Source of the DNA: Candidatus Woesearchaeota archaeon
GTDB lineage: Archaea > Nanobdellota > Nanobdellia > Woesearchaeales > 0-14-0-80-44-23
Reading direction: 5' to 3'
Assembly (NCBI GenBank): GCA_038874135.1
Contig: JAVZCZ010000001.1
Location: 576,001 to 640,000 of the forward strand
DNA: 64,000 bases
A program made the position numbers and the translations under genes. Under the pieces are notes generated by a model, which saw nothing but the letters and a program-made list of their open reading frames with translations, did not search any database and was not told the DNA's origin. Below are positions 531-59,384 of the stretch, one piece after another; the first letter of the stretch is position 1, and every line of letters starts with the position of its first letter.

Positions 531-683
531 ATGAAGAAGAAGGGCCTTATAGAATCGGAAGTCGGGCTTTGGATTCTCGCTGCAGTTGTATTGCTGATCC
601 TTATAATAATAATAGGAATGTCCAGAGAAAAAATAGTTGAATGGATATCAAAAATAAAAACCGGATTGAGGTTTGGAGTATGA
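531..683 (+). CDS. small class III signal peptide (pilin-like) protein, 50 aa; not in ORF track
   Basis: Hand translation MKKKG|LIESEVGLWILAAVVLLILIIIIGMSREKIVEWISKIKTGLRFGV. GAGGTGA RBS upstream; stop overlaps the next ATG (ATGA). Confidence 0.75.
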   Translation: MKKKGLIESEVGLWILAAVVLLILIIIIGMSREKIVEWISKIKTGLRFGV

Positions 684-823
684 AGCGCAGATCTGAAATA
701 GCCTGGGACACCATAATAAAGTTCATAATAATTGCCGCTGCAGTGTTTGTAGCTATAATAATTGCAAGAGCCCTATTATATGGCGGTTTAAAGAATGTGC
801 TGAACTTCACAGTTGGCGATTGA
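680..823 (+). CDS. small class III signal peptide (pilin-like) protein, 47 aa
   Basis: MKRRS|EIAWDTIIKFIIIAAAVFVAIII...: basic N-terminus plus hydrophobic helix, translationally coupled on both sides. Start moved from 641 to the ATG at 680. Confidence 0.7.
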   Translation: MKRRSEIAWDTIIKFIIIAAAVFVAIIIARALLYGGLKNVLNFTVGD

Positions 824-1647
824 ACATGGTAAGGAGAAGGGGAATTGCCATTGAAATGATAATATATGGCATAATAGCAGTTACTGTGCTTCTGGTTGTT
901 ATTGCTGTTGCTCCAAAGTTTTCAGCTCTTTTCAAAAAGATTGCTGGCTCAGAGATTGACAAGTACAAACCTAAAAAGCTGGATGTGCCCAACTCAGTAG
1001 AAACATGCCTTTACACTGATGGCATAGCAAACTTGGAAAGTGTCGGTGGAGAAAGTTTTGAGATAAGGCTGACAGCATTAAAGAAAGGGGAACAAAAGTT
1101 CAAGATTGAAGTTAACAGGCCAGGTCAAAGCGGCAGTATAATCTGTAAGCAGGGCGACTGGATTATGGTACCTAAGGAGTATTCCTGCTGTGAGGATAAG
1201 AGCACGAACCTGTGCATACAGCTTTTGGAAGTAAAGATGACGAATGATGGGGAATGCGTTCGGGCGCAGCTCTTTGGCAAGGGCGAATGGCTTCCGGCTT
1301 CTTATCCCTTGTGCATGCCTAATAGCCAAAAGTGTGCTGATTCTAACTCTCTCACTTTCTGGTGGGAAAACAATCAGAAGATTGAAATTAGCCTTGAAAA
1401 ACTGCACACCTGGTTTGGAAATATTTTTGTAAAGTGTGCTGAGTTTGAAATCTTAGCTGATGGCAAGACAATATGCAACAAGGGATCTGGACTTGTTGGT
1501 TTAGATGCGGGAGAGGAGGTTGTTTGTGATGTTGGCTCTCCAAGTTTTAAAGTACATTTAGACAAATGTGACACTGGAAACAATATGGTTCAAATTTCAG
1601 TTTATAAAGTTGATAGTAGTAGGGGTGGTGGAGGGAGTTCCAGGTGA
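820..1647 (+). CDS. class III signal peptide (pilin-like) protein with Cys-rich extracellular domains
   Basis: RRRG|IAIEMIIYGIIAVTVLLVVIAV followed by a beta-rich region with many Cys. Confidence 0.75.
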   Translation: MNMVRRRGIAIEMIIYGIIAVTVLLVVIAVAPKFSALFKKIAGSEIDKYKPKKLDVPNSVETCLYTDGIANLESVGGESFEIRLTALKKGEQKFKIEVNRPGQSGSIICKQGDWIMVPKEYSCCEDKSTNLCIQLLEVKMTNDGECVRAQLFGKGEWLPASYPLCMPNSQKCADSNSLTFWWENNQKIEISLEKLHTWFGNIFVKCAEFEILADGKTICNKGSGLVGLDAGEEVVCDVGSPSFKVHLDKCDTGNNMVQISVYKVDSSRGGGGSSR

Positions 1648-2255
1648 GGAGCGTTAATATGAAAAATTCAAAGGGTGCAATAACTATTGAGACGCTGCTC
1701 TGGGTTGTTCTGGCAGCGGCAGTTCTGGTTTTTGTGATAATTCCAGTTATGAGTAAGCTGCTCAACATGATTGGAAAAAAATCTCCCCTTAGTGTTTCAA
1801 ACTATTTTGGCTTAGCTAAGCAGACGCTCTCTGAGCTGAAGGAGAATCAGAAAACTCAGGCAGTAATCTATTTGAGAAAGGGTTACACCCTTGTTGGCTT
1901 TGATTACGGGAATTATCCTACATATTTCCACTGCGGCTGGACTAGAAATGGCGCTGTAGTTAAGCCTAAGCTGTGCGGAACAGATGCCTGCATATGCATC
2001 TGCGATAAGAATGGAAAATGCGATTTTCCGTATGAGTGCATAAAATTCAAAGATGTAAAAAACATATACTTTTCTCCCTCAAAGGGCTTTGAATACAACG
2101 GCGGTAAGGAGAAGCAGAACAACCTCTTTTACTTATACATACAGACTAGCTGCATACTGCATGCTCAGGGCTTTGAAAAGGCAATAGATTTTGAATTTGA
2201 AAAGAAAAAAGATGGCGGAGAAGTAAATCTTTATGTGAGAGATGTGACCAAATGA
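1644..2255 (+). CDS. class III signal peptide (pilin-like) protein
   Basis: KNSKG|AITIETLLWVVLAAAVLVFVII; CGTDACICICD Cys cluster. Confidence 0.75.
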   Translation: MRSVNMKNSKGAITIETLLWVVLAAAVLVFVIIPVMSKLLNMIGKKSPLSVSNYFGLAKQTLSELKENQKTQAVIYLRKGYTLVGFDYGNYPTYFHCGWTRNGAVVKPKLCGTDACICICDKNGKCDFPYECIKFKDVKNIYFSPSKGFEYNGGKEKQNNLFYLYIQTSCILHAQGFEKAIDFEFEKKKDGGEVNLYVRDVTK

Positions 2256-2686
2256 TTACGAAGAGTAAACTTTTCTTTGGAAGGAAGGGTGACGGGCAGA
2301 CGAGCACTATGCTAACCCTGTTTTATCTTATGATGTTTGCAACCCTTCTGCTTTTAGGAATTAAATATGTGTATTCTGCTGCTAGCGGCAGGGAGCTTGA
2401 AAGGACATATACTGCCAGGGATGTCGCGTTAGTGATGTCTACACTTCAAGCGGCACCTTCCGAGCTTGTATATTATAAGTATCCTGCAAACCTCTCCAAA
2501 AACGGTCTAACCGTGCTGATACATAAAGACAATGTGACTGTCCTTGAAGAATCTGGCTTGCAATCTGTTTTCTTCTTTCCAAACACTTTAGGCATTAGTG
2601 TTGAAGAGATGGAATTTAAAGAGGAAATCAAGTTGAAAAAGAATGAAAACAAGATCTTAGAGGATGAAAATGGGAAGAAGAGGTGA
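2252..2686 (+). CDS. class III signal peptide (pilin-like) protein
   Basis: GRKG|DGQTSTMLTLFYLMMFATLLLLGI, then an ARDVALVM helix. Confidence 0.7.
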   Translation: MITKSKLFFGRKGDGQTSTMLTLFYLMMFATLLLLGIKYVYSAASGRELERTYTARDVALVMSTLQAAPSELVYYKYPANLSKNGLTVLIHKDNVTVLEESGLQSVFFFPNTLGISVEEMEFKEEIKLKKNENKILEDENGKKR

Positions 2687-3179
2687 AAGTTTAACTTTTG
2701 ATTTCATAATAATGATACCTGTAGTTATGTTTATTACTCTTGTTTTTTTAACATATGTTTTCGCAACAAGTGCATTTGTTAAAAGCAGAACTCAATCCTC
2801 ATTGGCAGAAGCAGTGATCTACGCTAACAAGTTCATATTTCAGAAAGAATGCTTGGCATATTATTCCCCCGCCATAAACAGGGCTTATCCCGGAATAGTT
2901 GATATCACAAAGTTCAATCAGGATAGGATTGAGAAGTGCATGAACTTTCCAAGAGAAGAGATGGCTGCAGCCATATTGAACCTAACTTATAATGGTGTGG
3001 AACATATCGTCTACTACAATGAGGATAGAGCGCGTATCTGGAACTCCCTCTCAAGGTATGGGGGCGGCGGCTCATATCTGAGGTATGAGCTTAGAAGTCC
3101 TGTGCTGGTTTATGAAGGGTCTGGTGAAAAGTTTTTAAACGGTGAACTGACAACAATAATGCTGGTGCCTTTAAGATGA
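2664..3179 (+). CDS. class III signal peptide (pilin-like) protein
   Basis: GRRG|ESLTFDFIIMIPVVMFITLVFL; overlaps its neighbours. Confidence 0.7.
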   Translation: MKMGRRGESLTFDFIIMIPVVMFITLVFLTYVFATSAFVKSRTQSSLAEAVIYANKFIFQKECLAYYSPAINRAYPGIVDITKFNQDRIEKCMNFPREEMAAAILNLTYNGVEHIVYYNEDRARIWNSLSRYGGGGSYLRYELRSPVLVYEGSGEKFLNGELTTIMLVPLR

Positions 3180-3721
3180 TTAAAAAGAGCTGCAGAAGGG
3201 GAGCTGGTCCTTCAGACACAATAACTCTTGTTTTCTCCCTTATTTTGTATGTTGTGATGGTATTAGTGTTTTCTCTTCTACTTTTTGGAAAGGGCTGCGA
3301 AAATGAGGAAGAACTTAAGTCAACCTCTACCTGGATTGCAATAGAAAACTTTTTGAGGGGATATCTGCGGTCAAATGTTATCGTAGATGGAAGGGAGATA
3401 AGCGTTGCTGAATTGATAAGTTATTACTACCACTCCCCAAAAGATTACAAACAAATACTGGAAAAAATAAGTAGGGAAAAAATGAATGAAAGTTCAGTAT
3501 CGTGTCTCGTAATTAAGATAACCTTCTCTGATGATCCTGACGAGCAAAAGACTTTTAGAAGTTGGAAAATGGATCGTGCAGAATGCACAACTGAAGAGAC
3601 AACAGTAGATCCGAGTACCGGTCTTCTAATGCCCTCTTTTGCAGGCAGAAGGCAGCCCATTCCAATAATGAATTCAAGTGCAGTTGCTCTTGTTGAAGTG
3701 GGGGTGCTGAGAAGTGGCTAA
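3176..3721 (+). CDS. class III signal peptide (pilin-like) protein
   Basis: CRRG|AGPSDTITLVFSLILYVVMVLVFSLLLF; ATGA coupling. Confidence 0.7.
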   Translation: MIKKSCRRGAGPSDTITLVFSLILYVVMVLVFSLLLFGKGCENEEELKSTSTWIAIENFLRGYLRSNVIVDGREISVAELISYYYHSPKDYKQILEKISREKMNESSVSCLVIKITFSDDPDEQKTFRSWKMDRAECTTEETTVDPSTGLLMPSFAGRRQPIPIMNSSAVALVEVGVLRSG

Positions 3722-9820: not shown

Positions 9821-10732
9821 ATGGAAATTGAAGAGGCTGTTAGACAGATAAAAGAGTTGAAAGTTCAAGGCGCAGAAAACATAGCTAGATTCGCAGTTAA
9901 AACTCTGATGGAAGTCGTTAAAAATTCTGAAGCGCAGACTGTCAGCAGCCTCTACACTGAATTAAGTGATGCAGCCAGACGTCTCTCCCAGGCTAGACCT
10001 ACTGAGCCTTGCATGTTCAACTCCTTCAGATATGTTTTTGTAGGGCTCAAAAAGGGTTCTGCAGTTGAGCTTTACAAGAGTGCTCTGGAAAGGATGGAGG
10101 CTGTTCTGAAACATTTTGACGAAGCGCAAGAGACAATAGCTGAAATTGGTGCAAAAAAGATAAAAAATGGCAGTGTTGTTTTTACACACTGCCACTCTTC
10201 AACTGTAATAAAGATTTTAGAGAAGGCAAAGAAGCAGGGAAAGAGATTTGAAGTATATAATACTGAAACAAGACCACTATATCAGGGAAGAAAAACTGCT
10301 GAAGAGCTTAATGCTTTAGGAATTCCAGTAACTCATTTTGTAGACGCAGCTGCAAGATATGCAATAAAAAAATGCGACATAGCACTAATAGGAGCAGATG
10401 CGATCACCAGCGATGGAAAGGTGATAAACAAGATAGGCTCAGAGCTTTTTGCAGAGGTGGCAAAGAAGTTTGAAGTGCCATTCTATTCCTGCACAGACTC
10501 CTGGAAGTTTGATGTGGAGAGCATTTTTGGATATGAAAAAAATCTTGAAATAAGAAGTCCAAATGAAATCTGGCCTGAAGCGCCTTCTGGAATCAAAATA
10601 AATAATTACGCCTTTGAAAAGGTAGATGCAGAGCTCATAACAGGTCTCATTTCTGAGTTAGGAATTTACCACCCTGATGTGTTTGTCCAAGAGATTAGAA
10701 GAACATACCCTGAATTATTCAAAAAATATTAA
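9821..10732 (+). CDS. ribose-1,5-bisphosphate isomerase / eIF2B-like protein
   Basis: VQGA, RPTEP, THCHS, ETRP, GADAI, NKIGS motifs. Confidence 0.85.
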   Translation: MEIEEAVRQIKELKVQGAENIARFAVKTLMEVVKNSEAQTVSSLYTELSDAARRLSQARPTEPCMFNSFRYVFVGLKKGSAVELYKSALERMEAVLKHFDEAQETIAEIGAKKIKNGSVVFTHCHSSTVIKILEKAKKQGKRFEVYNTETRPLYQGRKTAEELNALGIPVTHFVDAAARYAIKKCDIALIGADAITSDGKVINKIGSELFAEVAKKFEVPFYSCTDSWKFDVESIFGYEKNLEIRSPNEIWPEAPSGIKINNYAFEKVDAELITGLISELGIYHPDVFVQEIRRTYPELFKKY

Positions 10733-10800
10733 GCTTTTGCAAATAAAAAGTAGTTAAGGCGTGGCAAAAATTTTAAGTTCAAATTTTTAAGTTGAAGTCC

Positions 10801-11726
10801 CTCTCAGACCTTAATTTCGCGTGGAAGCTTTTTTTATCATCATAGAAATAAAAATCAGGAAATAATAAAAGCGAGAGATGATAAAAAGCGAAAGTGATAG
10901 GATTCCAAGAAAAGAAATAATAAAGAAAAAGAACAGAAGAATAAGATAAGATTAAGGAATAATAAGATAAGATGAAAATGCTAATAAAAAAATCAAATGG
11001 TTCTGAAAGAAATTTTAGAAAATGAAGTTTTAATAGATTGTTTTTAAAAATATTTTTTTAAAATATATTTTTCAAAATATATTTAAAAATTATATTAAGA
11101 ATTATGTTTAAAAATATAAAAACTAAAAACAAAAAAGACAGAATAATAAAAAATATTTAATTTCAATATTGAAAAAAATAAAAAATAATTATTCTTACTA
11201 TATTTATTATTTTATTATGAATATTTTATAATAGATATTTAAAAACATGTTTTATATGATATATTTTTCAATATATTCTTTATTTCTTAAATTTTTGACT
11301 AATCATTTAGAATATGTTTTTCTTTAATATATTCTTTATTTTTTGTATTTTATGTTTTATATTTTCAATCATATATTTTTGTCTTTCGTATTTCTGCCTT
11401 ATTTTTTATTTCTATTTTGATACTAAATTTTTTAATCTTTAAATTTTAACATCTCCTTTTAATTCTTTAATCTTTTATTTTTTTAGTCTGTTCCAAAAGA
11501 AACAAAGGTGTCAGAGTGTTGCAATGCATTTGCACGCAGAAAATTTGGCATTAACTTGTATTTTTTTTCAGATACTAAACTTGTTCTGAAAGCAAATCAG
11601 AAGATTATCGTCTAAAAAATTTTATCTAATTAAAACTGCACTATCTTTTCAGACAATCTAATGCTTGTTTTTGTTAATATATCTTTCAAAACATAAACCT
11701 TTAAATACCTTTGTTTCACTTGGAAC
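10801..11726. other. probable replication origin (oriC): inverted ORBs flanking an AT-rich unwinding element
   Basis: Minus-strand ORB 10801-10827 (CTTCCACGCGAAATTAAGGTCTGAGAG), plus-strand ORB 11490-11516 (GTTCCAAAAGAAACAAAGGTGTCAGAG) and minus-strand ORB 11708-11726 (GTTCCAAGTGAAACAAAGG). Extremely AT-rich core; directly upstream of cdc6. Confidence 0.85.
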
Positions 11727-11731
11727 TTTTT

Positions 11732-12949
11732 ATGACTCAGAACAACAACATTTCTAAAAATCTTTTTGAAAAGTTCCTTACAAAGAACTCAATATTCCTA
11801 AACAAGAGCGTACTGCAGGCAAACTACCTTCCGGACTCAATACCCCACAGAGAAGAACAGATACGGCAGATTAGGGATGTAGTAGGACCTGCGCTTCGCA
11901 TGGAAAAGCCTTCTAACCTTTTCATATACGGACAAACTGGAACTGGAAAGACTGTTACTGTCAAATACATTGCAGATGCAATGCTCAACTTTGCCAAAGC
12001 AAACAACATTCCCTTACGAATAATATACCTAAATTGCAAGATGAAAAAGGTTGCAGATACAGAATACAGGCTTGTCGCCCAGCTAGCAAGGGAGTTTGGA
12101 AAAGAAATACCTGCCACAGGCCTTCCCACAGACGAGGTTTACAAGATATTCTTCTCAGTTTTAGACAGGGAAAGGCAGATAGTTCTTCTCATCCTGGACG
12201 AGATAGACCAGCTCATAGACAAGTCTGGAGAGGAGCTACTTTACAATTTGACCAGGATAAATGAGGAGCTAAAAAACGCTCAGGTTTCAATAATTGGGAT
12301 AACCAACAGGGTTAGCTTCGGAGAAAACCTTGACCCGCGAATAAAAAGCTCGCTTTCAGAAGAAGAAATCCTCTTTCCACCATATAATGCATTACAGATA
12401 CAGAACATACTCTACCAAAGGGCAAAATACGCATTCAAGCCAGGCGTTCTAGCTGAGGGCGTAATTGAAAAATGCTCGGCATACGCAGCTAAGGAGCACG
12501 GAGATGCGAGGCGCGCTTTGGAACTACTCCGAGTTGCAGGCGAAATCGCTGAGCGAAGGGACAGCACCCAGATAACAATAGCTGACGTTGACGAAGCTGA
12601 TAGCAAGATTGAGAAAGACCGCGTTATTGACATAGTTGAAGTCCAGCCGAAAGAGTTCCAAGCTACCTTGTACGCAATAATGCGGCTTGCAAAGAACAGA
12701 AAAAACAGTGCAATCTACACTGGAGATGTTTACGAGCTGTACAGGGGCATATGCGCGGAAGCAAACTTAAGGCCGCTTACTCAGAGGCGTATTTCAGACA
12801 TCATAGGCGAGCTAGATATGGAAGGAATAATTAATGCTAAAGTGATTTCAAAAGGACGGCAGGGAAGAACTCGCGAAATATCTTTCAACCTTCCGCAAGA
12901 AATTGCAGAAAGGGTTGAGAGAATAATTAGGGATTCTTTAGGAATATGA
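11732..12949 (+). CDS. cdc6: Orc1/Cdc6 replication initiator
   Basis: PHREEQI, Walker A GQTGTGKT, ILDEID, GDARRAL, C-terminal WH (SKGRQGRTR). Start moved to ATG 11732. Confidence 0.97.
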   Translation: MTQNNNISKNLFEKFLTKNSIFLNKSVLQANYLPDSIPHREEQIRQIRDVVGPALRMEKPSNLFIYGQTGTGKTVTVKYIADAMLNFAKANNIPLRIIYLNCKMKKVADTEYRLVAQLAREFGKEIPATGLPTDEVYKIFFSVLDRERQIVLLILDEIDQLIDKSGEELLYNLTRINEELKNAQVSIIGITNRVSFGENLDPRIKSSLSEEEILFPPYNALQIQNILYQRAKYAFKPGVLAEGVIEKCSAYAAKEHGDARRALELLRVAGEIAERRDSTQITIADVDEADSKIEKDRVIDIVEVQPKEFQATLYAIMRLAKNRKNSAIYTGDVYELYRGICAEANLRPLTQRRISDIIGELDMEGIINAKVISKGRQGRTREISFNLPQEIAERVERIIRDSLGI

Positions 12950-34814: not shown

Positions 34815-36350
34815 TTAACCAAGATCACAGGATGTGGTCGAATTAGGCCCGACTTTAAAACATTCATCATTACAACAAATTCCTGCACAACAGCTCCCCC
34901 CACACAGCACTTCACCCTTTTTACATTGTGTTGGGGGCATTGGCGGCTCATCCGGGGGAATTTCTTGATTAGTATTAACTTTTTGGCAGTTGCCGTTTTC
35001 GTCGCATTCGCAATCTACAGTGATGCCGTTTTCAATATATTTTGCTCTGAAGCCCTTTTTGAATGAGATTCTAGTGGTTTCGTTGCAGCAGGAGGGGTTA
35101 TAGGAAAACTTCTTGCTGCCAATTTTGAATAGAACATTTGAATCCGGAAGATATACTCCTATGTATTCATGATTTCTCGTTTCTAATTCTGGTGTTTGAG
35201 AAGAATATTCGCACATCACTCTTATTCTTATGCCTTCCTGCCAGTCCTTTAAGTCCTGAGGGTCTATTGCTGTAACATTTAACATGTGTACTCCAATATC
35301 GCCAGTACTGGCGTTGAAGCTATTCACCTTTCTCTTGTGAAAAATCCATTTTATGTTATTGCTGCTGTCCAGTGTCATGTTGTAAATGTCTACTGTGATG
35401 TTCAGCTGGTCTTCGTCAGGGTCAACTGCGTATCTTGTAAAGTCTATCTCGTCAGAGATGTTAAATTCAAGAGGGCTTGGAATGTTTTTTAGCACGGGAT
35501 TTCTGTTTTCTCTCAGGATTCTGAAGGTGTGTCCCGTTTTGTTGTCCCTCACCTCTATTGTGTCAAATTCTATTCCCCTTTTTATTACGAAGCCTCCGTA
35601 AGGGTAGAGCAGGTTGTAAGTAGGCTTGTTCAGCACATCCTCAAAAGCCATGAAGTCAAGCTTGAGGTCATTCAGGACAAACCTCAAAGCACTCTGATAC
35701 TCCCTGCCAATTCTGACTGGCGAGATGTACTTGTACTCGCTCTTTTTCAGCTTCACAGCAGTCTTGTTAACCTGTACTGAGAGTGGCAGGTAGAGCTCAA
35801 ATATTGTGTCCGAATCTCCAATTGTTACTTTCATGTCAGATGCTTCTGCACTGACCTTTAATCCGTACTTTTCATAATTTTGAAGGTCTATACACTCTTT
35901 TGTCCTATAAAGTGCGTATTCAGCCAGCATTTCCGCAATGCTTGGACTTAATTCCGAACTTGAGTCGAGCTTCGGGATTTGCAGCTTCCCAATCATGCTT
36001 TCAGATCTCGGATATGCTGGCGGCTGGTCTTCAGTGTTTCTAAGCATCCAGAAAACTTCTGAGCCATCATGCCTTCTAATTTTTGACTCATCTGCTACGC
36101 CGCCCTGCTCTTTGAATATGAATCCTCCCTGTGCTCCGGCAATTCGCAGAGCTTCTTCTGCTCCTATCTTAAGACAGGACTCAACATTTGCTTGTATGTT
36201 CAGCATCTGGTTTTCAATTGCGCTTTTTTGAATAGCATTCTGCCTCATCATGTTTATTGCGTTCTGCTGGCTGAATATTATTAGGATCGTGAAAGTGCCC
36301 ACTACTATTAATCCGAGTATGAGAAATATTGCCATCTGAGCCCTGGTCAT
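34815..36350 (-). CDS. class III signal peptide surface protein with Ig/cadherin-like domain and Cys-rich tail
   Basis: MTRA|QMAIFLILGLIVVG; NRNPVL...DPDED; C-terminal Pro-rich linker and CGGSCCAGICCNDEC. Confidence 0.75.
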   Translation of the reverse strand: MTRAQMAIFLILGLIVVGTFTILIIFSQQNAINMMRQNAIQKSAIENQMLNIQANVESCLKIGAEEALRIAGAQGGFIFKEQGGVADESKIRRHDGSEVFWMLRNTEDQPPAYPRSESMIGKLQIPKLDSSSELSPSIAEMLAEYALYRTKECIDLQNYEKYGLKVSAEASDMKVTIGDSDTIFELYLPLSVQVNKTAVKLKKSEYKYISPVRIGREYQSALRFVLNDLKLDFMAFEDVLNKPTYNLLYPYGGFVIKRGIEFDTIEVRDNKTGHTFRILRENRNPVLKNIPSPLEFNISDEIDFTRYAVDPDEDQLNITVDIYNMTLDSSNNIKWIFHKRKVNSFNASTGDIGVHMLNVTAIDPQDLKDWQEGIRIRVMCEYSSQTPELETRNHEYIGVYLPDSNVLFKIGSKKFSYNPSCCNETTRISFKKGFRAKYIENGITVDCECDENGNCQKVNTNQEIPPDEPPMPPTQCKKGEVLCGGSCCAGICCNDECFKVGPNSTTSCDLG

Positions 36351-50329: not shown

Positions 50330-50380
50330 TTAATTCTGAAAAAGAAGTAGTATATAAAAAGGTTAAAGAAATATCTCGGC

Positions 50381-50635
50381 CTATTTTCTTATCTTGCAGC
50401 AAATCTTGTCAGCACCGCAGCTCTGTGTTCCTGAAGGAATTTCTATGCTTCCATCAGTAATTTTGCAATTATCAGCAGCTGTACAAGTTCCGCCTAAGTC
50501 TTGGCAGTTGCTTGTTCCCCTTGCAAATATGCTTAGCTTCCCAGTGAAGATTGCAAACAACACTACTAAAACTACGAGCGCTATTATTGCTATTATTATC
50601 ACATTCACGGATAGTTCTACTCCTCTCCTCTTCAT
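50381..50635 (-). CDS. mini-pilin (class III signal peptide) with six-Cys defensin-like C-terminus
   Basis: KRRG|VELSVNVIIIAIIALVVL; C-x6-C-x5-C-x15-C-x5-CC. Confidence 0.8.
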   Translation of the reverse strand: MKRRGVELSVNVIIIAIIALVVLVVLFAIFTGKLSIFARGTSNCQDLGGTCTAADNCKITDGSIEIPSGTQSCGADKICCKIRK

Positions 50636-50644
50636 TTTTTCACC

Positions 50645-50902
50645 TCACGGATTTTTTCCTGGTAAGCAGCAAACTTCTCCATTGTTACTGCACTTGGCAG
50701 ATGGAAAGGGCGTTTCATCCATCTCGCACAGTCCTTGTCTGCAAATTCCTCCTTTTTTAGTGCAATCGCCCTGAAATCTTTCAGTATTCTCTCCCATAAC
50801 ATTAGTAAATATGAGTATTACAACTCCCAGAACGACAAGTGCTATTATCGCAATTATTACCACATTTATAGATAGTTCAACTCCCCTCCTTTCTTTCATC
50901 AT
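50645..50902 (-). CDS. mini-pilin (class III signal peptide) with six-Cys defensin-like C-terminus
   Basis: ERRG|VELSINVVIIAIIALVVL; C-x6-C-x4-C-x11-C-x6-CC. Confidence 0.8.
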   Translation of the reverse strand: MMKERRGVELSINVVIIAIIALVVLGVVILIFTNVMGENTERFQGDCTKKGGICRQGLCEMDETPFPSAKCSNNGEVCCLPGKNP

Positions 50903-51007
50903 CTCGCTCTTATTTTTTTCTCTATTTAAATCTTTCCTTAGCTTTTGATTTTCCTGTATAAAAAAATATATAAAGCATTGTAGTTTCTATTTTGCTCGGG
51001 AAAGACT

Positions 51008-51987: not shown

Positions 51988-53352
51988 ATGCTTTCAAAAA
52001 AAGGCGCTCCAAAAAAGACAGGCACTCAATCTGCCGAAAGAAGCCCTTCTAGGATTAATGCGAAGGCTGAAGCATCTTCTTCCTATGGCGAATCAGAACA
52101 GGCTTTGAAACAAAATTCAACTGTTGACAAGCTGGAGTATGTAGCCATGAGGGAGCGGCTTATTGAAGCGTCTAGAATAATAAGGCGTCTCTCCTCAGAA
52201 AATGAAGCCTTAAAAAACCGTCTTGCTCAATTAGTTGAGGAGCAGGCGCAGAAGCCAGTTCCAAACGAGGAGCTCTTATCTGCTCTTGAAAAGCGCTCTG
52301 CAGAAGTGCTGCAGCTTAAGTCCCAACTTTTAAATGAGCTTAAATATAGAGACTCTGCAGCTGAGCAGATTAGGGCCTTAGAATCGCAGATTTCGCACCT
52401 TAACAGCACAATTCTGACTCTTACAGAGGCGCTTAAAAATAGGGATTCTGTAGAGGAAGCAATGAGTTCTCAGCTTTTAGATTTGAAACAGCAGCTGGCA
52501 GATCGTGACCAAATAATAAGGGAACTGAGAAGTCACTTTCACGAGCGAAACAAGATTGAAGAACAGCTCATTTCAGATATAGGTGCACTGAAAAAAAATC
52601 TTGCCGAGAAAAATTCCACAATAGAAGAGCTTCTAAGAACAAACAAGTCCCTAGTTGAGATGAACAGAAGCACTGACGAGCTTGCAAGAAAAAAGGAAAA
52701 AGAGCTTGAGTTGGCATTAAAGCAGATTGATTCAATGAAGGAGCAGATAGAAAACCTCAATTCACAAATTAGAAGCCAGCAGGAAGAACATAAAAAGACG
52801 CTTGAAGATGTCAAAAGGGCGTTTGAGCTTGAGAGGAAAATGCTTCTTGAGGAGTTTTCAGAGAAAGAGGCAACACTCAGGTCCAGAATTTCCGAGATGG
52901 AAGCAGCTATGACAGATATGAAAAAGACAATAGAATTAAGAAATTCCGAAATTTCTTCAATGGCAGCTGCACTTAATCAGCAAGTTTCAATGCTTTCCCA
53001 GCTCTCGCAGATGCCAAAGAGCGTTACAGAAAGGGTTGAAGAACTTAAGCAGCCGATCCTTCAAAAAAATTCAAGAGCAAAACCTAAGGAAAGGTTAAAA
53101 ATTGAAGAGAGAAAGGAAGTTTTACGCATTCCAGAACCTCCAGCTCAGATACGAGATTCTAATAAGACCGTTAGCGCTTATGATAATATTAGTGAGGAGC
53201 GCCTAGAAGAGATACGCGCCGCTCTAGAAATAGCTGCGATGCGCAAGGAGCCTTTGGCTAGAACAAAAAAATCTCTTCTCAGCTCAGGCTACTCTGAAGC
53301 AGAGATAGACTTGGCATTATCACAGGTTAACAAAGAAAAAGAAAGGCAGTAA
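51988..53352 (+). CDS. long coiled-coil protein
   Basis: About 300 aa of heptad-rich E/K/L/Q sequence; C-terminal LLSSGYSEAEID helical motif. Confidence 0.7.
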   Translation: MLSKKGAPKKTGTQSAERSPSRINAKAEASSSYGESEQALKQNSTVDKLEYVAMRERLIEASRIIRRLSSENEALKNRLAQLVEEQAQKPVPNEELLSALEKRSAEVLQLKSQLLNELKYRDSAAEQIRALESQISHLNSTILTLTEALKNRDSVEEAMSSQLLDLKQQLADRDQIIRELRSHFHERNKIEEQLISDIGALKKNLAEKNSTIEELLRTNKSLVEMNRSTDELARKKEKELELALKQIDSMKEQIENLNSQIRSQQEEHKKTLEDVKRAFELERKMLLEEFSEKEATLRSRISEMEAAMTDMKKTIELRNSEISSMAAALNQQVSMLSQLSQMPKSVTERVEELKQPILQKNSRAKPKERLKIEERKEVLRIPEPPAQIRDSNKTVSAYDNISEERLEEIRAALEIAAMRKEPLARTKKSLLSSGYSEAEIDLALSQVNKEKERQ

Positions 53353-53359
53353 GAAAGGT

Positions 53360-54301
53360 TTAACAGCTCTTCTTTACAACTATCGGCTGTATCTTATATG
53401 AGAGGTAGTCATATGTTAGTGTTATGGTTACATCCTTCTGATAATCCACCCTTCCCTGCCCAGTTGGAACTTTTTGTATGCAATTAACTATTGCCTTTCC
53501 AGCTCCCTTGTCACTGCTAAGCGTTATGAATCCTGAAGTGTCCGAGCCATCCCTTAAACCAGTGCATCTCAGCCCAGGTATGCCGCTCTCAATTGTGAAT
53601 AACACCCTATTCCTATTGGCAAAAGTGTCTAAACATCCGGAATCCTGCTTAAAGACATTGCCGTTCCCCTTATGCTCTACAGTTATTTCAAACCTCACCT
53701 GATCTGTACCGGCTACGCTCTCAACAAAAGAGGTAACCTGTATTGGAGCACCGGAATTGGCCACCTGCTTTGCCCCATCTATAGTGCAGGCACCCTTGCT
53801 TGTGTCCCTGAGGTTGCTTTTTATGCACGCCTGCGCGATTGCTGTTGTCTTATAGTTGTAACATATTTCAGCTCTTAGTGTTGGATATTTTATGTCGCCC
53901 AGCACGTTTCCTCTGTAAGCAAGATTTGGAAATTCCACCTGAACTGGGATGGACGGCTGATTAACCTTTTTTCCTATTAAATCTTCAGGGGGGTGCTTAC
54001 TGAATTCAGCTGGCGAATATCCAAACTGTTCTGGCATTATGCCCGTTATTGTAACTAGAGCCTTATCTTTAGGAACGTCGTACTCTCCATCATTATTGAG
54101 TTCAACTATTATATCAAACTGGTTAGTACTACCAGCGCAGGAGTCAAACACCTCTGCAGGCGGCGACTCAGGAGCAAAGTTAATCAGCACCCCGTTTGTT
54201 CCTCCCGCAAAGGTTCTTGTTGTTGAACTGGTGTTCTCAGTGCATCCTAAAGACATTAGGATTCCTAAAATTAAGATTCCAAAGAGTATTTCTCTCTTCA
54301 T
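53360..54301 (-). CDS. lipoprotein, Ig-like paralogue 3
   Basis: Lipobox SLGC; G.NGV.I.F...SPP; CYNYKT...CI; SGAPIQV; terminal YDY. Confidence 0.75.
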   Translation of the reverse strand: MKREILFGILILGILMSLGCTENTSSTTRTFAGGTNGVLINFAPESPPAEVFDSCAGSTNQFDIIVELNNDGEYDVPKDKALVTITGIMPEQFGYSPAEFSKHPPEDLIGKKVNQPSIPVQVEFPNLAYRGNVLGDIKYPTLRAEICYNYKTTAIAQACIKSNLRDTSKGACTIDGAKQVANSGAPIQVTSFVESVAGTDQVRFEITVEHKGNGNVFKQDSGCLDTFANRNRVLFTIESGIPGLRCTGLRDGSDTSGFITLSSDKGAGKAIVNCIQKVPTGQGRVDYQKDVTITLTYDYLSYKIQPIVVKKSC

Positions 54302-54310
54302 TTTTAACCC

Positions 54311-55216
54311 TCACAATCTTATTAGCTTGACATTTTTAACAGTTGAATATTTATAGCCATATTCCAGTGTAAGCTGGACGTTTGTAGTGTAAGCGCTCTG
54401 AGAGCTGCTCAGCCCAGAAACCTTGCATACAACTATGCCCTCCCCATTCACCAGTCTTACATCGCTCGGAGTGCAACTCATCTGACGGTCTGATAGGCTT
54501 CCAGACACCTTAACAAGGTTCTGCTTGCTCAGGTCAGCAGACATGCAGGTTCCAGTGCTGTCAGAAGATATTACTTCGCCTCCTCCAACATTCTTTATTG
54601 TAAAAGTGAATATTACATTTCCAACTCCTGATTCCTGCTGTATTGAAGTTACAGAAACTGGACCACCCTGACCTCCTGACATTGAAATTGACCTAGCAGG
54701 CTTGCACGCCTTTGTGCCCGGCTTAGACGGGTTTGGGTCTATGCACACTGTTGTTCCTGCAATTGTCTTATACTTGTAGCAGGCAGTTGCCATAAGGGGG
54801 ATTTCTATAAAGTCAACTCCAGAGGGCATTCTAAATTCAAAGTTTCCCACCTCTACATACTCTAAAGAGCCTGAAGGATTTTTGGATTCTTCTTTACCTT
54901 CCAGCCTTTTAACGCTTACTGTGCTTGGCAGTGGCAATATGTTTGGATCGTAACCGCTAAGGTATATTGTTGCTCCATCGCAGCTTTCCGCCCCCAAGTT
55001 TCTTACTTCAATGCTTACTGCCACTCTATTGTCACCCCCTTGGCTGTAGTGTAAACTCTCAGGTGGGCTGCTCTCTGCGAAGTTTATTTCAACTCCTTTT
55101 GTTCCAGTGCGATAGTTAGTAGTGCTCTTGCTTGAAGGGCCGCACCCATAAGCCAGAATCAAGAGAAATAGCGTTGCAAAGATTGCTGAATTTTTTAAAA
55201 CCTTGTTTGCTCTCAT
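54311..55216 (-). CDS. lipoprotein, Ig-like paralogue 2
   Basis: Lipobox AYGC; GTKGVEINF...PP; ACYKYKT...CIDP; GGPVSV; YGY. Confidence 0.75.
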   Translation of the reverse strand: MRANKVLKNSAIFATLFLLILAYGCGPSSKSTTNYRTGTKGVEINFAESSPPESLHYSQGGDNRVAVSIEVRNLGAESCDGATIYLSGYDPNILPLPSTVSVKRLEGKEESKNPSGSLEYVEVGNFEFRMPSGVDFIEIPLMATACYKYKTIAGTTVCIDPNPSKPGTKACKPARSISMSGGQGGPVSVTSIQQESGVGNVIFTFTIKNVGGGEVISSDSTGTCMSADLSKQNLVKVSGSLSDRQMSCTPSDVRLVNGEGIVVCKVSGLSSSQSAYTTNVQLTLEYGYKYSTVKNVKLIRL

Positions 55217-55270
55217 TTTTCTTCACTCTCCAATAGCGTTTAATTATATAAAGTTTTCTTTAATCTTTTC

Positions 55271-56212
55271 CTATCCTGGCAGTTTTTTAATTATCACTTC
55301 TTTAGTTGCAATCTGTACATAGCCGTAGCTAACATTTATTAACAACGGGCTTACATAGGAGCCGTCGCTAACCTTTAAGATTCCAGTTTCGCAGGTTACA
55401 ATGTCTTCAGAATTCTGCGAGAGGTCTGCATAGTTTCGCTTTCCGCAGTTCAACTCTTTATCCCCAAGCTTGGCGCTGACATATGCCCTTCCAAAGTATG
55501 CTGAAGGAGCGCCCGTCACCTTGGTGTTAGAGCATAAGACTTCCCACTTTCCTTTATCTACTACAATTCCATCCCCTACATTTCTTATCTTTATTGTGAA
55601 TACCATTTTTACTTCGCTCTCGCTTTGAAATAATTTTGCGGCGTCTATCTCGCTAATTACAATCGGCGCTCCCTGACTGGAGAGTGTTGTTTTCTCTCTG
55701 AATGTGCACGGCTTTCTTCCACCTTCATATATCGAGGTATCAACACAGAAGGAGGTTGTAGCAATTGTGTAATAAGGGTAACATGCAGTTGCAGTTATTT
55801 CAGTGTTTATTTCGTTGAGGCCCAACTCTTCAGGAGCGCTTAGCATAAATATTTTAAAACTTCTTCCACCAATAAATGTTCTAGTGTCTTCCCTGCCGGG
55901 AATTTTAAATCTAAAAAAGTCATCATTTTTTATCATCTTTTCTGTCGGAAATTCAGGAGCATTTATTATGAGCACTCCATCTAAGGCAACAGCACCCGCG
56001 TTTTCCAACATTATACCTACTGGGAATTCCGTGCCTGCATATACAATGTCTGGAGGTGAATTTTTCATGAATGAAATTCTCAAAGCTTCTGTCCCGCTAT
56101 GGGCATTGAATGGTAAGGCTCCAGGCGAGTAGGTGCATCCCGAAATTATAACTAACAATATCACGATCGGAGTAGCCGTCTTAATGATTTTAAGCTCTGC
56201 AGCCCTAAACAT
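55271..56212 (-). CDS. lipoprotein, Ig-like paralogue 1
   Basis: Lipobox ISGC; GTEALRISF...PP; ACYPYYT...CVD; SQGAPIVI; YGY. Confidence 0.75.
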   Translation of the reverse strand: MFRAAELKIIKTATPIVILLVIISGCTYSPGALPFNAHSGTEALRISFMKNSPPDIVYAGTEFPVGIMLENAGAVALDGVLIINAPEFPTEKMIKNDDFFRFKIPGREDTRTFIGGRSFKIFMLSAPEELGLNEINTEITATACYPYYTIATTSFCVDTSIYEGGRKPCTFREKTTLSSQGAPIVISEIDAAKLFQSESEVKMVFTIKIRNVGDGIVVDKGKWEVLCSNTKVTGAPSAYFGRAYVSAKLGDKELNCGKRNYADLSQNSEDIVTCETGILKVSDGSYVSPLLINVSYGYVQIATKEVIIKKLPG

Positions 56213-58175: not shown

Positions 58176-59384
58176 TTAAGGCAGGTAATATTCAACTTTT
58201 AATTCTGATATGTAAATTGTATTTATAGGTTCTATTTTTATCGCGTTGTTGCCTTCAAGAATTTCTGATGAGGAGAAGTTTATAGAATACTCAACATTTT
58301 TAGTGCTAACCCTCTTGAGAATGTTGTTCAGGCGTATGTTGAACACCTTTTCGGAATTGTCAGGGAAGCGCATGTACATTCTTACTCCGAGAGTTCCGCT
58401 TTTTATTTTTGAATAGTCGCTCTGACTGATATCAAAATAGTAAATCGGGTAGGATATCTCTTTGAATTGGGGAACTATCCTTATCTGTTCTATAGAATAG
58501 AGCCCGCTATCTGTTGAGAATGTTATCCTGTTTTGGCCCTGCTTGAAGTATTCTGGCGAGGCTTCTATGCTATAGGGTGAGCCGCATTCGGGCACGAATG
58601 CTGCAACCTCGTTCTGATTTATTGTGATTGTAAGCTTTCCGCGGTTGGAAGAAGCGCAGTCCGCATAAAACTTCAGATTATACTTTTCTGCGTATGCAAT
58701 TTCAAAATCTGAGATTTCGAAGGAAGCTGTTGCTTTCTGGTATGAAAGGTCAGTTATGTATCCGGTTATCTTTATGTCCAGTAAGTTGTAGTTGTTTTCC
58801 CTCCAGATTGCAAGCCCGGGACTTGAAACTGAAAATTCCAAAGTGTTTGTGCCTTCAACAAGATTATCCTTTGGAAGTTGAATCGGGTTTGGATTGTACG
58901 AAGTTATTTCGCTGTTGAATATCTCCTCTCCATTAAGCTTTATTATGAGCCTTCCGGAGTGGGAGCTAGCTGCAAAAGAGAGCATCAGATTATCTACAGC
59001 TTCTAAGTTTTTAACTTCAAAAGTCACCTGTTTAGAAATCGCTCCGAATATGTTGTTCTTTATATAGAAGGGGTTTATCGTCTTTATCACAGCCGCATTT
59101 CTTGTAACCTTTACAACTAAGTCGTTAACCGAGTGGCCATCTGAATATTTGTCATACATTGAAGAGGCATCAAGCCTTCCAGGCTTTTCATCCAGCAGAA
59201 CCTTATTGGCTGAACTGTCCTGAGAGCTTGAGTTAGTAGCGTTTTCAGTTAGAAGTTCCTGTCTGGTTTCAGGGGGTAAGAAGAGGATGTAAATTATTAT
59301 TAAAAGTCCAATGAGTCCAACAAGAACTCCTGCGCTGGTTGCAGTCTGGGCCTTCCTATTTTTTTTAAGGGGTTGAGCGAGCAT
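58176..59384 (-). CDS. class III signal peptide (pilin-like) protein with beta-sandwich repeats
   Basis: KNRKA|QTATSAGVLVGLIGLLIIIYILFLPP; three repeats ending L.EG.N.(L/I). Confidence 0.75.
   Translation of the reverse strand: MLAQPLKKNRKAQTATSAGVLVGLIGLLIIIYILFLPPETRQELLTENATNSSSQDSSANKVLLDEKPGRLDASSMYDKYSDGHSVNDLVVKVTRNAAVIKTINPFYIKNNIFGAISKQVTFEVKNLEAVDNLMLSFAASSHSGRLIIKLNGEEIFNSEITSYNPNPIQLPKDNLVEGTNTLEFSVSSPGLAIWRENNYNLLDIKITGYITDLSYQKATASFEISDFEIAYAEKYNLKFYADCASSNRGKLTITINQNEVAAFVPECGSPYSIEASPEYFKQGQNRITFSTDSGLYSIEQIRIVPQFKEISYPIYYFDISQSDYSKIKSGTLGVRMYMRFPDNSEKVFNIRLNNILKRVSTKNVEYSINFSSSEILEGNNAIKIEPINTIYISELKVEYYLP

Follow-up and report, generated by a model that had tools for sequence, protein, structure and literature searches.

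The closest described counterparts of the two proteins reported here are the short, EppA-processed pilins of methanogens, and in particular MMP1685 (EpdE), the major pilin of Methanococcus maripaludis, which is only 74 aa long (62 aa when mature) and whose gene lies far from those for pilus assembly (PMC3875500). In substrates that follow the EppA pattern the mature protein begins with Gln at +1 and carries Glu at +5 (PMC3875500). The heads of our proteins find their nearest likeness elsewhere, in the beta-defensins of vertebrates (hBD1, hBD2 and hBD3, and those of birds and crocodiles), small cationic peptides built on the six-cysteine framework C-x6-C-x4-C-x9-C-x6-CC. Invertebrate big defensins join a hydrophobic N-terminal region to the same fold, this N-domain being a soluble globular beta-alpha-alpha-beta unit that is released by furin-type cleavage, and reviews describe the trans-defensins as a whole as having arisen exclusively in animals (PMC7203481). 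The open-access literature that we searched contains no description of the family treated here, or of such a module in archaea.

We describe two tandem genes, mini-pilins A and B, in a 64,000-nucleotide stretch of DNA (the window) from a Candidatus Woesearchaeota archaeon, whose genome is a single contig of 909,956 bp (99.4% complete). Both encode a pilin-type leader and hydrophobic helix followed by a six-cysteine head.

The mini-pilin A and B genes

The features of the locus are as follows, in window coordinates.

50645..50902, minus strand: mini-pilin A, an ORF of 85 aa (84 aa if the second ATG, at 50899, is the start)
50381..50635, minus strand: mini-pilin B, an ORF of 84 aa, tandem paralogue of A
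50882..50902, minus strand: predicted class III leader of A, MMKERRG, with putative cleavage after Gly7
50621..50635, minus strand: predicted class III leader of B, MKRRG, with putative cleavage after Gly5 by analogy with A
50666..50764, minus strand: six-Cys head of A, C47 to C79
50396..50506, minus strand: six-Cys head of B, C44 to C80, aligning Cys for Cys with A and with the family
50923..50930, minus strand: TATA-box-like TTTAAATA, ~24 nt upstream of the A ATG
50640..50646, minus strand: Shine-Dalgarno-like GAGGTGA, overlapping the A stop codon and 4 nt before the B ATG
50351-50360: second TATA-like box, ~26 nt before Rpp21 (this box, the first one and the GAGGTGA were read from the sequence)

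The short distance of ~24 nt between the TATA-like TTTAAATA and the ATG suggests that the transcript of A is leaderless. Together with the GAGGTGA before B and the separate TATA-like box before Rpp21, it also suggests that A and B form a bicistronic unit of their own, a small operon. A scan for promoters and terminators returned matches no commoner than in shuffled sequence, with sigma-70 and bacterial terminator models that are irrelevant for an archaeon.

A begins MMKERRG/VELSINVVIIAIIALVVL and B begins MKRRG/VELSVNVIIIAIIALVVL, where the slash marks the expected cleavage site; both leaders are short, basic and Gly-ended, and are followed by VELS.NV.IIAIIALVVL and more hydrophobic residues. 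The heads have the spacings C-x6-C-x4-C-x11-C-x6-CC (A) and C-x6-C-x5-C-x15-C-x5-CC (B), so that both show the beta-defensin framework with a longer third loop. The tandem ORFs and these spacings were first noticed in a reading of the sequence without database searches (the sequence-only reading), and they are exactly as it gave them. Overall the two proteins are 46% identical.

The same reading called the N-termini near-identical, which holds for the proteins (23 of the first 31 residues are the same) and fails for the genes, where only 11 of these 31 codons match. Across the stalk the comparison of A with B gives a pS of 0.69, a dN of 0.20 and a dS of ~1.9, which is saturated. From this excess of identical residues over identical codons, the duplication is old and was not followed by gene conversion in recent times, and purifying selection acts on the stalk. 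The head loops of A and B differ in length, and a codon-by-codon alignment of them is impossible. Diversifying selection on a variable tip, as suggested by the sequence-only reading, would thus be a separate hypothesis; what the comparison shows is the constraint on the stalk.

A large family at a conserved position

A family profile searched against 1.84 billion representatives matches 5,461 clusters (at 50% identity) with E<=1e-3 and 2,531 with E<=1e-10, and scores A at 92.9 bits and B at 89.2 bits. The clusters, where they have names, are called 'hypothetical' or are misnamed by way of the hydrophobic helix (DUF948, HemY), and no model in Pfam or NCBIfam covers the family. Its carriers are archaea of Woesearchaeota and Nanoarchaeota type, the relatives being titled Candidatus Woesearchaeota, Nanoarchaeota or Nanobdellota. 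A word-indexed search with A alone found just A and B, and the related loci were gathered with a tight alignment of 8 sequences, A alone as query having matched none.

Six-frame searches find full-length relatives across the order to which our genome belongs. Most of them stand in tandem arrays of 2-5 genes, and many are beside larger proteins with pilin leaders. In an alignment of 28 relatives the N-terminal consensus is KKG/QGLS.N.IIIAAIALLVLVVL, and the six cysteines are invariant. When 401 genomes of the phylum were sampled, the head profile by itself had matches in 159, a tally that includes the unpublished G276, G277 and G419, which are used for no other claim. Among 193 collected members, 185 have G-x-C2 and 166 have GG-x-C2. 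With the six cysteines invariant in the 28 relatives, so many clusters, and a glycine so regularly placed before C2, the six-cysteine pattern of A and B is, on these alignments, not the product of chance. A and B belong to this family, which is very large and has no name, and whose members are probably mini type-IV-pilin-like proteins of the Nanobdellota, that is, of Woesearchaeota-type DPANN archaea.

The titles of some public assemblies differ from this distribution. Many third-party assemblies that bear the family, among the loci L044-L123, are titled 'uncultured Methanosarcinales archaeon'; at least one of their contigs (an example is L069, identical with G035:C1) is part of a genome that a genome search assigns to the order of the present DPANN genome. 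Single matches titled Thermoplasmatota and Aminicenantes are likely to reflect problems of labelling or binning.

In our genome the six-cysteine module occurs in A and B and nowhere else. The pair is flanked by a divergent gene for the RFC small subunit on one side and by Rpp21-S13-S4-S11-RpoD, on the same strand as A and B, on the other. The order RFC-A-B and the flanking genes are kept in a genome of the same genus (G001), a genome of a sister genus (G002) has just one copy, flanked by Rpp21 and RFC, and in another family (G007) a mini-pilin array abuts Rpp21. Elsewhere the arrays lie among other genes with pilin leaders.

Uncharacterised surface proteins from other DPANN lineages, 374-1,712 aa in length, also carry the head module, once or twice each. 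Seven of these larger proteins are encoded at the following positions.

L034:2512-4326
L035:1388-3166
L036:2249-3424
L037:2427-3548
L038:3369-6083
L039:4768-9903
L040:2408-3721

Searches of the seven against Pfam returned nothing that would explain their function. Module proteins of ~380 aa have a pilin-type leader themselves and adjoin mini-pilin genes. A word-indexed search for longer proteins with the head alignment returned no fused forms, all its matches being mini-pilins of the ordinary kind. Because the module is carried by non-filament surface proteins of 370-1,700 aa as well, the head is, to judge from this distribution, not specific to pili.

Probable fibre subunits, or possible surface anchors

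The sequence-only reading had proposed that the heads are displayed on a pilus. Both proteins have a leader of the expected kind, short and basic, ending in Gly and followed by at least ~20 hydrophobic residues (MMKERRG/VELSINVVIIAIIALVVLGVVILIF and MKRRG/VELSVNVIIIAIIALVVLVVLFAIF), and this pattern of leader plus helix is conserved throughout the family. The genome also encodes an assembly machinery: one prepilin peptidase (Peptidase_A24, 39.5 bits, in the region of G000:C1:265091-265426), three T2SSE ATPases and four T2SSF platform matches, all above their cut-offs, with the platform genes beside those for the ATPases. Given this machinery, display on a pilus is a plausible extension.

Given the prepilin peptidase and the ATPase/platform pairs, we favour the view that A and B are subunits of a thin surface fibre resembling a type IV filament, with the knob exposed. 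In the mechanism that we propose, the basic leader of 5-7 residues, which ends in Gly, would be cut off by the genome's A24 prepilin peptidase, while the hydrophobic N-terminal helix of ~32 residues would serve first as a membrane anchor, in an N-in/C-out orientation, and then form the core of a thin fibre, whose assembly would fall to one ATPase/platform pair of the genome. The head of ~40 residues would be exposed, with a predicted three-stranded sheet and putative disulfides 1-5, 2-4 and 3-6, and, being neutral to acidic, would most likely provide a compact, protease-resistant outer surface or an adhesive tip for a host cell or a substrate. If this is so, A and B are candidates for the main fibre subunit of DPANN archaea, and would represent an unusually economical design for a pilin, of one helix and a disulfide knot of 40 residues.

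A second possibility, which we consider unlikely, is that A and B do not polymerise and are surface proteins held by a permanent or class III-processed anchor, in the manner of the sugar-binding 'bindosome' proteins of archaea, the knob acting as a receptor, an adhesin or a component of the envelope. The genes for the peptidase, the ATPases and the platform proteins are all outside the window, and A and B are away from every ATPase/platform locus, as such an anchor would allow. Models for class III signals, for DUF361 and for pilin N-termini in Pfam and NCBIfam match neither A, B nor any of the 28 members, even at E<=1-10, and the leader is broadly used, about 25 other ORFs of this genome having one of class III type. 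The presence of the module on large and evidently non-filament surface proteins points the same way. However, the small size and the continuous helix of 32 residues are typical of pilin sets, as are the arrays of 2-5 paralogues beside pilin-like genes in relatives. The distance from the machinery is no strong objection to fibre subunits either, since MMP1685, a proven mini-pilin, is likewise encoded far from its own (PMC3875500).

The comparison with MMP1685 and the other short pilins extends to further traits. Like MMP1685, A and B are very small (~78 aa when mature, against 62 of 74 aa), and combine a short, basic, Gly-ended leader with a hydrophobic helix in a stand-alone gene remote from the machinery (PMC3875500). 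They differ from the Epd pilins at the start of the mature protein, where Val stands at +1 and is followed by Glu at +2, and in matching neither the DUF361 nor the class III model. Most other members of the family do have Gln at +1, and none has a conserved Glu at +5. The head is a further difference, as a six-cysteine module with three putative disulfides has not been reported for Epd pilins, and assembly, established for MMP1685, is here predicted from the gene content.

Charge of the heads and a possible effector role

Between C1 and C6 the net charge is 0 in A and -3 in B, with a median of -2 and a range of -9 to +3 over 193 members, and neither A nor B has the cationic mature peptide that characterises beta-defensins. 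Since the heads are neutral to anionic, unlike the cationic defensins, membrane attack by charge is unlikely, and we do not follow the sequence-only reading where it offered membrane attack as a function. The anionic heads also caution against equating 'defensin-like' with 'antimicrobial'.

Big defensins offer an analogy for released effectors, in which the helix and knob would be shed after processing as a peptide that acts on the envelope of a host or a competitor, for example by binding cell-wall precursors. The fold and the framework of the head are defensin-like, and big defensins likewise join a hydrophobic N-terminal region to this fold (PMC7203481). A further parallel is P0063 (L033:188-2458), a protein of 756 aa with a Sec-type signal, in which a related module (hhalign probability 93%) is repeated nine times in tandem before a C-terminal GH25 muramidase domain. 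Its contig, a JGI contig of 2.5 kb with 27% GC and 14% GC3, looks, by its composition, like the transcript of an AT-rich eukaryote. A tblastn search with the GH25 domain of P0063 found no homologue in our genome or in 122 related loci, and this, with heads that are not cationic and a pilin-type leader and transmembrane-length helix in place of a Sec signal with propeptide, makes a shed effector improbable.

Predicted fold of the head

The sequence-only reading had described the heads as a defensin-like module. We searched a profile of the head, built from 148 sequences, against 177,635 distinct PDB sequences. There were 11 matches, of which 10 are chains of beta-defensin fold, the lowest E-values belonging to the tick carboxypeptidase inhibitor (7.8e-4), crotamine (0.004), hBD3 (0.008) and gallinacin-11 (0.011), followed by a crocodile defensin (0.032), the platypus defensin-like peptides and the oyster big defensin (0.65). 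Matches to Pfam are weaker. A scores 8.4 bits with Defensin_beta, below the gathering threshold of 21 bits, and among the 28 members the best E-values, 2.1e-4 for Defensin_beta_2 (5 members) and 5.5e-4 for Defensin_beta (3 members), are not significant. All matches of individual members to Defensin_beta_2, Defensin_beta, Inhibitor_I68 and Defensin_big are below threshold, Inhibitor_I68 being matched by just 2 of the 28.

The AlphaFold2 model of full-length A (pLDDT 82) consists of a helix (residues 12-43), a short helical turn and three strands (53-56, 63-66 and 76-81), and when the head is modelled by itself with the 148-sequence alignment the pLDDT is 85. In the predicted models the strands form a three-stranded antiparallel sheet, which hBD2, hBD1 and a crocodile defensin match best. 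A Foldseek search with the full-length model places peptides of the defensin superfamily in the best ~35 rows, where beta-defensins occur with alpha-defensins, defensin-like peptides of the platypus, toxins of sea anemones and helianthamide. With the head-only model Foldseek gives a TM of 0.65-0.67 and an rmsd of 1.5 Å to hBD2 and a TMt of 0.73 to hBD1, and the cysteine positions of the model superpose on those of hBD1. An exhaustive aligner that is independent of Foldseek, run against 48,161 chains, puts hBD2 at the top, with Z 4.4 and an rmsd of 1.7 Å for 37 residues. Of the rows that reach Z>=2, 35 in number, about 30 belong to peptides of the defensin superfamily. The absolute structural scores are weak (Foldseek E 0.09-0.3, Z<5), as the head has just 40 residues.

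The ESM Atlas has a model of the protein of its own, and this too matches clusters of chordate beta-defensins. Our own head model matches Nanobdellota proteins of 590-600 aa (TM 0.88) and, after them, chordate defensins (TM 0.72-0.73). Defensin structures were included in the training of both structure predictors. Framework, predicted fold and putative wiring (below) are all beta-defensin-like, and the structure comparison that had been suggested as a check of the defensin-like module came out in its favour. On the strength of these models the head is likely to be a three-stranded, beta-defensin-like knob with three disulfides, and the only globular part of the protein.

That the likeness is an artefact of modelling or of pattern, the predictors copying the fold from the cysteine spacing of a three-disulfide knob of other topology, is very improbable: all fold scores, with the Pfam score of A, fall under the usual levels of significance, but two different predictors agree, confidence rises with the 148-sequence alignment, the conserved GG-x-C2 motif is found in hBD1 and hBD3 as well, and the natural loss of cysteines (below), which is independent of the models, fits pairs 2-4 and 3-6 and not the alpha-defensin or knottin wiring.

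Putative disulfide wiring

Members that have lost cysteines in nature give an indirect view of the pairing. A census with the head profile on six-frame ORFs of 123 fetched loci gave 218 hits, of which 161 have all six cysteines; the rest are for the most part incomplete or misaligned. Both C3 and C6 are missing from one mini-pilin in L088 and from three tandem mini-pilins in L112, from the second module of ~380-aa pilin-like proteins in L019, L070 and L071, and from the second modules of P0007 and P0009, while C2 and C4 are both absent in L053. Credible four-cysteine members therefore show loss of C3 with C6 in five contexts and of C2 with C4 in one, a further member being ambiguous, in a sample that is small and in which some cases share ancestry. 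Joint loss of C2 with C4, and of C3 with C6, is what 2-4 and 3-6 pairs would predict, with 1-5 left by elimination, and the co-loss is thus indirect but consistent evidence for a putative 1-5/2-4/3-6 wiring. In alpha-defensins the cysteines are paired 1-6, 2-4, 3-5, and in knottins 1-4, 2-5, 3-6; neither of these wirings is fitted by the observed co-loss. As for the enzymes of disulfide formation, our genome has no match to VKOR, and a thioredoxin-like match (Thioredoxin_4) is below the cut-off.

A cytoplasmic, metal-binding role for the cysteines, of the zinc ribbon type, was also considered and rejected. The heads end in a CC doublet and lack knuckles of the CxxC or CxxH kind, and the module is preceded by a basic leader and a hydrophobic helix, which by the positive-inside rule would place it outside the cytoplasm. 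The sequence-only reading had named a metal site in the cytoplasm as an outcome that would speak against it, and the heads show no sign of one.

Relation to animal defensins

The archaeal heads have the framework and the GG-x-C2 motif in common with vertebrate beta-defensins, and the predicted head superposes on these with an rmsd of 1.5-1.9 Å across 34-39 residues, in a three-stranded fold. The putative 1-5/2-4/3-6 wiring would be a further likeness. The heads differ in their archaeal source, in being neutral or anionic, in the longer third loop (x11 in A, x15 in B), in the fusion to a pilin leader and helix, and in scoring below the gathering thresholds of Pfam. The C-domain of the oyster big defensin is found among both the profile and the structural matches of the head. 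Unlike the archaeal heads, however, the C-domains of big defensins are cationic, and in contrast to their N-domain the model of A has one continuous helix (12-43) and no N-terminal strands. The tick carboxypeptidase inhibitor and crotamine, the best matches of the profile, are secreted animal proteins, unlike A and B, and show the fold as a binding module rather than as a membrane-active peptide. Because the head is anionic, is fused to a pilin helix and is below the family thresholds, we file A and B as pilin-like proteins with a defensin-like head, a new variant, and not as members of the defensin family.

Whether the module is homologous to the big and beta-defensins of animals, the fold then being an old domain of prokaryotic surface proteins and not one born in animals, is a matter on which we lean towards doubt while keeping the idea in view. 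If it were so, thousands of DPANN proteins would carry the module, as would at least one lysozyme of the GH25 type, encoded by an AT-rich, eukaryote-like transcript, and the layout of big defensins, a hydrophobic segment plus a defensin domain, would echo that of pilin helix plus knob. A beta-defensin scaffold in thousands of archaeal proteins would, if borne out, allow deep homology, transfer and convergence to be tested against one another.

Other class III-like leaders and neighbouring genes

Several further ORFs in and near the window have leaders of class III type or lie beside RFC. A run of such ORFs at window positions 531-3718 encodes proteins of 50, 273, 198, 144 and 181 aa and extends upstream (genome 574865-576521) by two more, of 270 and 281 aa; Pfam matches none of these proteins, several have 6-12 cysteines, and the run lies directly upstream of the genes for TBP and MCM. 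Two others are found at 34818-36350 and 58179-59384, one of 511 aa with 16 cysteines and the other of 402 aa with a weak, polysaccharide-lyase CBM-like match. Outside the window, five ORFs with pilin-type leaders (145-725 aa, 6-22 cysteines each) are clustered at G000:C1:426586-436995; the third ATPase/platform locus, at 415-417 kb, is ~10 kb away.

Next to RFC, an ORF of 454 aa (window 51988-53352), which looks like a coiled coil and has no Pfam match, starts 6 nt past the RFC gene and is kept downstream of it in both G001 and G002. It is followed by three tandem paralogous ORFs of 301-313 aa (window 53360-56212), also without a Pfam match; a lipoprotein-like signal (…LGC) is present in the first at least, and the set is kept beside RFC in G001. 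Lastly, there is a local dip in GC to 0.296 at window positions 10001-12000, against ~0.42 for the window as a whole.
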